Source of the DNA: Dehalococcoidia bacterium
GTDB taxonomy: Bacteria; Chloroflexota; Dehalococcoidia; Lucifugimonadales; UBA3495
Direction: 5' to 3'
Assembly (NCBI GenBank): GCA_965249215.1
Contig: CBDFLN010000002.1
Coordinates: 305,180-369,179 of the forward strand
DNA length: 64,000 nucleotides
Part shown: positions 53,626 through 55,200 of the stretch, in pieces
How the letters are laid out: every line of letters begins with the position of its first letter
How positions within the stretch are numbered: position 1 is the stretch's first letter
Position numbers and translations under genes: made by a program
The notes under the pieces: model-generated
Databases searched by the model: none
Told to the model about the DNA's origin: nothing
Seen by the model: the letters and a program-made list of their open reading frames with translations, nothing else

Positions 53626-55200
53626 TCAGACGCCACAGTAACCCTCACACTCGTTGCCGAACCCGTCCGATTGCCCGTCCGTTCCCAACTCCGCCTCATC
53701 GGGGCTGACCGCCTGCGCGAGGGGCACCCGTCGTGGATGCAGATAGGGTTCTTTGGCGAAGGCCAGCCTGCCCCGCATGTTGGAATCTATCTCCACCGCC
53801 TCGGCGAACAGCTCCGGCCATCTGCGCTTGGTCTCGACCCACCGCTGACGGGACTGGTAGGGACAGCCGACGCAGGCGGAGCGCTCCAGTGGCCGGTCGT
53901 AGCGGGCCTGCCACCACGCAATGCATTGCTTCCTGGACATCCCAGCTTCGATGAGGGGGTAACGGTTCTGTATCCATCTATCGCGAGAGGGCCTCATGCG
54001 GATGGCCTCGTCGGTAGAGATGCCCAGCCACAGCTCGACGGCGGTGCCGGACGGAACACGTTATCCTTTTGTGAGTCCCAGCAGCTCGCGTATCTTCCGC
54101 TGAATCGATTGAGTGGGGACGGCGCCGCCGTTGGCCGGGCGGACCCGGCTGGTCTGCGCCATCCCCCTCACCGAACCGGACGTGCGACTTTCACCGCATC
54201 CGGCTCTCCATCAGGTGGGTTAGACCTATGTGGGTCGGGAACATCGGCTTTCCGCCATCATCGTCGGGTTCATACATCCCGCCTCCGGCGTAGTTCGCTT
54301 CGTTCCACTCCCATCTGACTGCCCCCCTTCGCCATGCGGCCGGCTTTCCCGGCCTCGGACTACTACGAGGGCTCTGCCACACGTCCGGCGTTGGCCGAAG
54401 GCTGGCCTACTCCGTAGCCGGAGAGCCGGTCGTGGTTCCCAAGTTCGCCTAGGTTGCGTCGTCGCGCCGTCTTAGGTCCTGCCTCTACGCCTGGCTTGGC
54501 TCGCTGCCGCGCTCGCCATCGGGAGATGCCGTAAATTGGAGTCGGCATCTCTGTCCTAACAGGACTGCCCCTGTATAAGGCAGACAGGGGTTCCAATGAC
54601 TCCACCCTCGCCCTACCGTGAGCAGGTGGTTCTACATTCGACGCTTCAGTCGGCAGTTCCTTTCGTGACCATAACGACACTCTGGCTAGCAGCGCACGGT
54701 TTAGCAGGGTCACCGTCGCCACATTGTCGGGGAGGCTTCAGACATGGTTCCGCCTCTGGCCCCCATGCCTGCTCCCCTAGCCACCGGCCCACTCCTGGCC
54801 GAGTTCCGCATCCGGAACGTTCAACCCATGCGCTTCTTGGCGCACGCCTTATCTTGTAGTGCTCGGTACATTGGCGACGACCCATCCCGTCGCTCCCTCC
54901 GTCACGTCCCTTCAGATAGACGGGAAGGTCTACGAAGCTGTGGTTGCCGGAGTGGTTGGTGAGGGTATTGACGTCCTCGCGGAGACTCCGCCCGTTGTCC
55001 ACGACGTACACGGGGAAGCCGAGACGCTCGGCGAGCCAATCGAGGTGAGTGTAGAGACTGGGAGGCTCCCAGTGGGTGTCGGCGAAGATGGCGCAGTTGG
55101 GGATGGCGTCGAATGCTCCCTGGCTTGCCATGAGGGCCATGACGGAGGACTGGACGCCTCCGCCCAGGCTGATGATCGTCAGAGAGTGTGTGAAACGCAT
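53626..55200 (-). pseudogene. PAPS-reductase-like (PP-loop) gene split by a group II intron and carrying an in-frame TAA
   Basis: Exon 1 is 55200-54846 (SLGGGVQSS PP-loop ...RRQCTEHYKIR). Exon 2 is 54107-53626 (PIQRKIRELLGLTKG-TAA-RVPSGTAVELWLGISTDEAIRM...CVGCPY). The spliced frame is continuous. The TAA is at 54061-54063. Confidence 0.65.
54108..54845 (-). mobile_element. ORF-less group II intron (738 nt)
   Basis: The 5' end is GTGCGCC. Domain V is GAGCCGGATGCGGTGAAAGTCGCACGTCCGGTTC (54206-54173). Domain VI is a helix GAGGGGG..CCCC-A-CTC with a bulged A 7 nt from the 3' end ..CAAT. It contains no long ORF. Confidence 0.8.

Follow-up and report, generated by a model that had tools for sequence, protein, structure and literature searches.

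A group II intron without an open reading frame in a PAPS-reductase-like gene of a Dehalococcoidia bacterium, a probable member of a non-autonomous intron family

A 64,000-nucleotide stretch of the genome assembly of a Dehalococcoidia bacterium (contig CBDFLN010000002.1, positions 305,180 to 369,179; hereinafter, the window) contains a group II intron, complete with all six domains, that is 738 nt long, occupies positions 54845..54108 of the minus strand, and interrupts, in the sense orientation, a gene encoding a PAPS-reductase-like protein. The intron is real, with boundaries defined to the nucleotide, and its features are far beyond chance. Quite likely, it is an intact ribozyme of the IIB type whose intron-encoded protein (IEP) was lost when about 1.5 kb of domain IV was deleted, and it belongs to a non-autonomous family that is represented in several Dehalococcoidia metagenome-assembled genomes (MAGs) and is mobilized in trans. 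The presence of a group II intron lacking an open reading frame (ORF), with these exact boundaries, had been proposed previously from inspection of the nucleotide sequence and its translations (the original prediction), and this core proposal is supported by the analysis described here, whereas some of the conclusions drawn from it are not. Throughout the text, L-numbers denote fetched loci that were compared with the window, D1 to D6 denote the six intron domains, and all window features are on the minus strand unless stated otherwise.

The intron and the interrupted gene

When the whole window was searched on both strands, the Rfam model Intron_gpII (RF00029), which describes D5-D6, matched positions 54208..54108 with a score of 63.4 bits (E=4e-10; gathering score, 40 bits). 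The match covers the full model (1-77), terminates exactly at the last intron base, 54108, and is the only one in the gathering-threshold Rfam scan of the window. In a permissive scan, group-II-D1D4-7 (RF02012) matches D1 at 54802..54667 over the full length of the model (31.8 bits, E about 1e-4); the gathering score of this model, 34, is reached neither here nor in the sister copy L082 (32.2 bits). Thus, of the covariance models that the original prediction proposed to apply, one yields a clear match and the other falls just below its gathering score. The motifs on which that prediction was based are all present, too. The 5' boundary, between 54846 and 54845, reads CACTACAAGATAAGGC followed by GTGCGCC, with the 5' GUGYG motif represented by GTGCG at 54845; the 34-nt D5, GAGCCGGATGCGGTGAAAGTCGCACGTCCGGTTC, contains the AGC triad and a 2-nt bulge; and the D6 helix has an A, bulged 7 nt from the 3' end, that both the Rfam alignment and the consensus structure leave unpaired. 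The 3' boundary, between 54108 and 54107, reads CCCCACTCAAT followed by CGATTCAGCGG, and the predicted junction of the ligated exons is AAGATAAGGC joined to CGATTCAGCGG. The G+C content of the intron is 63.6%.

A consensus structure built with RNAalifold on four full-length copies of the intron (window, L082, L030, and L053; see below) is the canonical six-domain wheel, which the original prediction had suggested looking for. The structure includes 233 base pairs, 19 of these with compensatory double changes; with four sequences, the covariation support for individual helices is modest. Only 3 of the 233 consensus pairs are non-canonical in the window copy, the lowest number of defects among the four copies. 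Therefore, the ribozyme is not degenerate, as had been surmised, but rather is well preserved, and it is the ORF alone that has been lost.

Joining position 54846 to 54107 restores, as originally noticed, a single frame, which comprises 278 codons. The intron, a phase 1 insertion, divides the codon for Pro119 (C, then CG). The product of the spliced gene contains the PAPS_reduct domain (PF01507, E=1.1e-07), matches phrog_424 (E=9.5e-42), and aligns over its entire length with more than 100 uninterrupted homologs, most of which are 278 aa long and the best of which is 94% identical. The protein sequence across the junction, HYKIR-PIQRK (EHYKIR followed by PIQRKIRELLGL), is exactly reproduced in the homologs. 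Furthermore, locus L001 contains the same gene without the intron: L001 positions 5838-6355 correspond to window positions 55365-54846 (95.6% nucleotide identity) and L001 positions 6356-6855 to window positions 54107-53614 (91%). Because L001 is collinear with the window across the junction (6355 and 6356 aligning with 54846 and 54107, respectively), it represents the empty site, and its uninterrupted gene retains the target, CACTACAAGATAAGGC followed by CGATTCAG, unchanged. An exact look-up of the 184-aa ORF that results from read-through of exon 1 into the intron retrieved no record of the same insertion elsewhere.

The possibility that the feature is not an intron at all, but a chance domain-V-like hairpin in a fused or misassembled gene, is vanishingly small. 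We found no point in favor of this interpretation, and it is refuted by the Rfam match, with its E-value of 4e-10, by the exact empty site in L001, by the conserved full-length homologous copies of the intron in other genomes, and by the covariation observed both in the fold and in the pairing with the exons.

Splicing of group II introns proceeds through a lariat intermediate by an established mechanism. In the case of the window intron, the six domains would form in the transcribed RNA; the bulged A at 54114 would attack the 5' splice site, between 54846 and 54845, through its 2'-OH; and the freed exon 1 would then attack the 3' splice site, between 54108 and 54107, releasing the lariat and joining the exons in frame.

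The original prediction also held that the host gene depends on splicing. This claim is not supported in the form given. Codon 134, which falls 15 codons into exon 2 and just beyond the end of the translation quoted in that prediction, is an in-frame TAA, whereas all 13 of the 13 aligned homologs have glutamine in this position. Accordingly, splicing alone cannot yield the full-length protein: translation of the spliced mRNA would still end after residue 133, unless the TAA is a base-calling error, and the CAA-to-TAA change apparently inactivates the window copy of the host gene in any case, regardless of splicing. An error of assembly or base calling, with the host gene actually intact and dependent on splicing, is unlikely. 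It would be compatible with the single C-to-T difference from the CAA codon of L001 and with the remainder of the 278-codon frame being open and conserved, but no sign of such an error is apparent in the sequence, and the visible decay of the surrounding element (see below) fits pseudogenization. The codon differences from L001, 25 synonymous and 18 non-synonymous, are not normalized by the number of sites and say little about constraint. With regard to annotation, the window gene is to be described as a split pseudogene with an intron rather than as two unrelated ORFs.

A protein of 431 aa encoded in a 101-kb contig from ENA (P0002) is 96% identical to the host protein and is fused to an unrelated N-terminal region. 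This region includes a signal-peptide-like stretch and resembles the window ORF 56020-56298 (minus strand), which suggests that a deletion joined two genes in a related strain.

Sister copies and pairing with the target sites

When species-representative genomes were scanned for a domain V pattern, at least 119 loci were obtained and then compared with the intron using blastn. Among the loci listed, there are three other full-length copies of 738-740 nt, 85-88% identical to the window intron, all in other Dehalococcoidia MAGs (Table 1). In L082, the product of the spliced host gene matches the Beta-lactamase2 Pfam family across the junction (E=1.3e-49). When metagenomes were scanned for the D4 pattern that distinguishes the ORF-less intron family, only the two partial copies, L122 and L123, were found, and an nhmmer search of the window with the family profile detected neither another copy nor a fragment of the intron.

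The L053 locus (3418-5600; OZ242262.1) is a twintron that consists of two ORF-less introns. The family copy (4704-3967) is nested 121 nt into an intron of about 671 nt, an ORF-less derivative of the LtrA-like intron family discussed below; this outer intron shares 86% identity with D1-D3 of L041 and has its own D5-D6 at 3516-3418.

The exon-binding sequences (EBS) of the intron and the intron-binding sequences (IBS) of the exons connect each copy with its location. We read the EBS1 loop, the EBS2 loop, and the candidate EBS3 column in one fixed register against the exons flanking each copy. Pairing at the end of exon 1, another of the checks that the original prediction had envisaged, is complete in the window for both EBS1 and EBS2, and also in L030 (with one wobble) and L053; in L082, EBS2 pairs completely and EBS1 in 5 of 7 positions (Table 1). 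Over the four full copies, 96.2% of the cells pair in register, compared to 35-48% when the partner columns are slid; both sides changed in 13 of 13 EBS-IBS pairs (12 for EBS1 and EBS2, and one for the candidate EBS3); and none of the 500 shuffles reached any of the observed pairing measures. For the candidate EBS3, the intron bases in the four full copies are G/C/G/G and the IBS3 bases are C/G/C/C, that is, one double change. In subgroup IIB, an EBS3 located in a D1 internal loop pairs with IBS3 to recognize the 3' exon. This covariation is the apparent signature of retrohoming or retrotransposition with divergent target specificity.

Given that the copies reside in different sites, have EBS matching their own flanks, and encode no reverse transcriptase (RT), mobility would be possible only via a protein supplied in trans, and the pattern indeed points to retromobility driven by such a protein. 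The suggestion of trans-mobilization in the original prediction thus receives support, albeit indirect, from the occurrence of the same ORF-less intron in other sites and genomes. The IEP of a related intron located elsewhere in a genome would have brought the intron to its present location through reverse splicing into the DNA and reverse transcription.

Alternatively, the intron could splice in vivo independently of any protein and not be mobile, as proposed for C.te.I1 (see below), the precedent cited in PMC4424553. The compact, G+C-rich, strongly paired structure of the intron and the failure to find an IEP nearby, within the 64-kb window, are compatible with this scenario. Nevertheless, we regard it as quite improbable: the family occupies at least six different sites with retargeted exon-binding sequences, which an element capable of splicing only cannot produce, and D4 retains the region around the former IEP start instead of being deleted completely. 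In subgroup IIA introns, the IEP start region of D4 is a critical region of IEP binding (PMC2882425).

Table 1. Coordinates of the window features and of the related intron copies (fractions after EBS1, EBS2, and EBS3 are the positions paired with the copy's own exons)
Feature	Position	Strand	Basis or remarks
Exon 1, codons 1-118 + 1 nt of the PAPS-reductase-domain gene	54846..55200	-	PF01507, phrog_424, L001 identity
IBS2 CTACA	54855..54859	-	5/5 pairs with EBS2; register covaries in four copies
IBS1 ATAAGGC, final 7 nt of exon 1	54846..54852	-	7/7 pairs with EBS1; covaries in four copies
Intron, window copy	54845..54108	-	in PAPS-reductase-like gene; EBS1 7/7, EBS2 5/5, EBS3 1/1
Domain I	54439..54840	-	RNAalifold consensus; sub-threshold D1D4-7 match 54802..54667
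EBS2 TGTAG	54632..54636	-	pairing and covariation
Candidate EBS3 G, partner IBS3 = C at 54107	54602	-	tentative; pairs in four full copies
EBS1 GCCTTAT, loop of hairpin 54590..54568	54575..54581	-	consensus fold, pairing, covariation
Domain II	54376..54438	-	consensus fold
Domain III	54321..54372	-	consensus fold; D3 identity to many other fetched introns, about 80-98%
Domain IV	54210..54319	-	110 nt, reduced; putative site of ORF deletion
IEP start remnant ATG GCG GAA AG (M-A-E)	54248..54258	-	homologous to the MAEKQ start of L058
Domain V	54173..54206	-	Rfam and consensus fold
Domain VI	54110..54170	-	Rfam and consensus fold
Bulged branch-point A	54114	-	Rfam alignment and consensus fold
Exon 2, codons 119-278 + stop; first nt 54107 = IBS3	53626..54107	-	L001 nucleotide identity, protein alignment
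In-frame TAA nonsense codon 134 in exon 2	54061..54063	-	Gln in 13/13 aligned homologs; CAA in L001
Large serine recombinase, 543 aa	51786..53417	-	Resolvase + Recombinase + Zn_ribbon_recom; gene order as in L001
Sister copy	L082:532-1270		88% identical; in Beta-lactamase2-family gene; EBS1 5/7, EBS2 5/5, EBS3 1/1
Sister copy	L030:7074-6335		85% identical; no convincing ORF at site; EBS1 7/7 (one wobble), EBS2 5/5, EBS3 1/1
Sister copy	L053:4704-3967		85% identical; in domain I of another intron; EBS1 7/7, EBS2 5/5, EBS3 1/1
Partial copies	L122, L123		metagenome fragments; in DDE_Tnp_1_4 transposase gene
5' fragment	L094:6916-7174		cut by insertion sequence

Loss of the ORF and the candidate helper protein

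The original prediction stated that no RT ORF lies within the 738 nt. Indeed, neither of the two ORFs that the intron does contain (119 and 63 aa) matches a Pfam family, and a tblastn search of the window with three intron RTs was negative. How the ORF might have been lost is illustrated by comparison with L058, an intron from a Deltaproteobacteria MAG that is 68% identical to the window intron over intron nucleotides 120-597 and 88% identical over D5, and contains an RT/maturase ORF of about 1.5 kb (RVT_1 + GIIM) between the two aligned blocks. The D4 of the window intron aligns with L058 up to the IEP start, ATG GCC GAA AAG (MAEKQ), and the alignment picks up again just before D5. In the position of the IEP start, the window copy retains a remnant (Table 1), and the sister copies carry ATG GCG GAA AAG; a GGAGG motif that begins at 54286 lies 28 nt upstream of the remnant. 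The MAEKQ sequence is shared, at the N-terminus, by P0208 and P0225, two relatives of the L058 IEP. The presence of a remnant of the IEP C-terminus in D4 is only suggestive. The D4 profile is matched end to end by the three other full copies and the two partial ones, the shortened D4 being common to all. The simplest reading appears to be a single ancestral deletion of the ORF in D4 followed by the spread of the deleted form.

Among the solved structures, the closest one to the L058 IEP is the TeI4h IEP of Thermosynechococcus elongatus (6ME0, 208 bits). The L058 IEP itself consists of RVT_1 and GIIM only; several of its relatives (62-66% identical) carry a C-terminal HNH domain ending in a CxxCH motif, which rules out a lineage lacking the endonuclease domain.

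The best lead to the source of a helper protein is a candidate intron in L053. Positions 7840-8000 of this locus contain the end of an intron, with an HNH tail (LCRTCHMATHRSSQLQTV; LCRTCH..H), a stop codon, and D5-D6 that are 81% identical to those of the ORF-less family; this intron ends at L053:7840, 3.1 kb upstream of the ORF-less copy in the twintron and on the same strand. A chimeric 58-aa query designed for this HNH-tailed IEP shared no words with any protein. When the L058 IEP was used as the query, none among the best 120 of 7679 matches was attributable to the three Dehalococcoidia chromosomes in which ORF-less copies are located. Thus, the search for a trans-acting RT that the original prediction had recommended yields nothing in the 64-kb window itself and, elsewhere, the L053 candidate, an intron end only.

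We also considered, as potential partners, the LtrA-like introns, which are present in most of the fetched Dehalococcoidia loci. Their IEPs are about 600 aa long, combine the RVT_1, Intron_maturas2, and HNH domains, and have LtrA as the closest structure (5G2X, 394 bits). The similarity of these introns to the ORF-less family is confined to D3 and D5, with none in D1 or D4, and they are rejected as partners except for one reading of low probability. Under that reading, the lineage may no longer need a close cognate IEP, so that LtrA-like IEPs, acting as cross-class 'drivers', or a host factor might serve instead, and the family would be long-lived, having spread across Dehalococcoidia species through 12-15% divergence with the ribozyme under selection.

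Several Dehalococcoidia MAG loci with a domain V match (L021, L043, L052, L062, L079, L086, and L112) contain no RT detectable by tblastn; at least in L021, about 4 kb upstream of D5 is free of an RT. Dehalococcoidia genomes may thus commonly harbor group II introns that are ORF-less or internally deleted.

Several observations weigh against the interpretation of the window intron as an intact, trans-mobilized IIB-type ribozyme that lost its ORF. No RT or IEP is present in the 64-kb window, as judged by the tblastn search with the three intron RTs; the abundant introns in the fetched Dehalococcoidia loci encode a different, LtrA-like IEP; and among all fetched loci, L058, which comes from a different bacterial group, is the only ORF-containing relative with detectable similarity in D1. 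The candidate partner in L053 is represented by its last 160 nt, the locus ending before the ORF body and D1. The candidate EBS3-IBS3 contact, the only one behind the subgroup call, is a G-G mismatch at the L122/L123 site, so that the EBS3 assignment is tentative and the assignment of the intron to the IIB type is based on limited evidence. Finally, splicing and activity are inferred here from sequence alone.

The surrounding element and comparison with known introns

The host gene is an accessory rather than a core gene. In L001, it is located at the end of an element resembling an integrative and conjugative element (ICE), in which the gene order is VirB4/TraC-like, coupling protein, relaxase-like, small helix-turn-helix (HTH) genes, PAPS-reductase-like, a PhdYeFM/PIN pair, and serine recombinase. 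The window retains only the last part of such an element, namely, fragments of a gene for a 107-aa protein, an HTH gene (55995..55735), a gene for a 69-aa protein (55409..55200), the interrupted gene, and the serine recombinase. The relaxase, coupling-protein, and VirB4 genes are lost compared to L001, and what remains is, apparently, a decayed ICE-like stump without conjugation genes. One boundary of the island is delineated by L124, a contig 99.75% identical to window positions 43247-51828: since the similarity disappears beyond 51828, the island boundary maps to the end of the recombinase gene, and L124 provides no view of the intron site. Bacterial group II introns usually reside in mobile DNA. 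The premise of the original prediction that the insertion is unusual in that it affects a conserved coding sequence is therefore weak, given that the host is an accessory gene next to a serine recombinase.

The state of this element bears on the possibility that the intron is a stranded relic, that is, a real intron that arrived with the integrative element, has no cognate IEP at hand, is now neither mobile nor usefully spliced, and persists in a pseudogene. We view this as possible rather than probable. The nonsense codon in the host gene, the loss of the three conjugation genes relative to L001, and the lack in the window of both an RT and a second copy or fragment of the intron all are in line with such stranding. 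However, the ribozyme shows no decay (230 of the 233 pairs are canonical, with the fewest defects among the four copies), the complete EBS1 and EBS2 pairing with the flanks (7/7 and 5/5, respectively) is preserved, and the nonsense change is a single transition that could be very recent. Moreover, the relic scenario concerns only the present activity of the intron and is compatible with its origin by ORF deletion and trans-mobilization.

Several other features of the window are worth recording. A hicA toxin gene (51665-51832, plus strand) shares 47 nt with the 3' end of the serine recombinase gene, and no hicB gene is seen adjoining it in the window; the end of the similarity with L124, at 51828, lies inside this overlap, so that hicA, or its end, may have been the integration site of the island. 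The island also contains two ORFs on the plus strand (56576-57472, 298 aa, and 58620-59255, 211 aa) whose products have several hydrophobic stretches and no Pfam match. Further away, a block of about 28 kb (14845-43247) is absent from L124, which otherwise is 98-99.8% identical to the window. The block encodes a BT4734-like protein (15467-17908), a DDE_Tnp_1_4 transposase (24528-25853), an Eco57I/MmeI-type restriction-modification methylase (28861-32001), a protein combining PLD and SNF2-helicase domains (34708-38211), GmrSD (38397-40145), and a tyrosine integrase (41867-43054, minus strand), and looks like an integrated defense island.

Our literature search found no description of group II introns in Dehalococcoidia. 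The present analysis adds a compact, 738-nt, apparently structurally intact family of ORF-less IIB-type introns from these bacteria. The four sites, at which EBS1, EBS2, and EBS3 have been retargeted naturally, make up a clean comparative data set for the study of target recognition, and the copy in the beta-lactamase-family gene of L082 exemplifies that ORF-less introns can occupy ordinary bacterial protein-coding genes. The current understanding of how such introns work is unchanged, and the interest of the family is modest and mainly for specialists.

ORF-less bacterial introns nearly always share the genome with related, IEP-encoding introns (PMC4424553), and those of T. elongatus have been shown to be mobilized in trans (PMC2882425). 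Three known systems are relevant for comparison. C.te.I1 of Clostridium tetani, according to PMC4424553, is ORF-less, with no IEP in the genome, and has been proposed to self-splice in vivo without an IEP. The window intron, likewise, is an ORF-less bacterial intron with no partner IEP visible nearby; unlike C.te.I1, the Dehalococcoidia family displays what appear to be clear signs of repeated retromobility. The ORF-less introns of Methanosarcina use other group II introns as homing sites (Dai and Zimmerly 2003, as cited in PMC4424553). The common features are the coexistence of ORF-less and RT-encoding introns and the location of an intron within an intron, as in the case of the L053 copy in D1. 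The differences are that the Dehalococcoidia lineage is bacterial, that, in L053, the inner intron occupies D1 of an ORF-less member of the LtrA-like family rather than an intron ORF, and that the window copy is not nested.

The closest apparent precedent, with the same set of features, is the group of 17 ORF-less TeI3 introns of T. elongatus described by Mohr, Ghanem and Lambowitz in 2010, which share a single domain IV deletion with ORF remnants, have divergent EBS families, form twintrons, and are mobilized by 'driver' IEPs (PMC2882425). Similarly, the Dehalococcoidia introns appear to be IIB-type ribozymes that lost the ORF in one D4 deletion of about 1.5 kb, which left remnants and is common to all copies; their sites differ, the EBS/IBS pairing is good, and the EBS have diverged; twintrons occur in both cases; and the IEP of the closest ORF-containing relative, L058, is nearest, among the solved structures, to the T. 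elongatus TeI4h IEP. The two cases differ in the host phylum and in the distribution of the copies, the Dehalococcoidia ones being scattered over several species or MAGs at 85-88% identity whereas TeI3 consists of many near-identical copies in one genome. Also, the driver IEPs of TeI3 are known, whereas the Dehalococcoidia helper is a candidate and the mobility is read from the sequences, and the window and L082 copies lie inside protein-coding genes. ORF-less, non-autonomous bacterial introns are an uncommon, already known kind of element, and the intron described here is a further member of this class.

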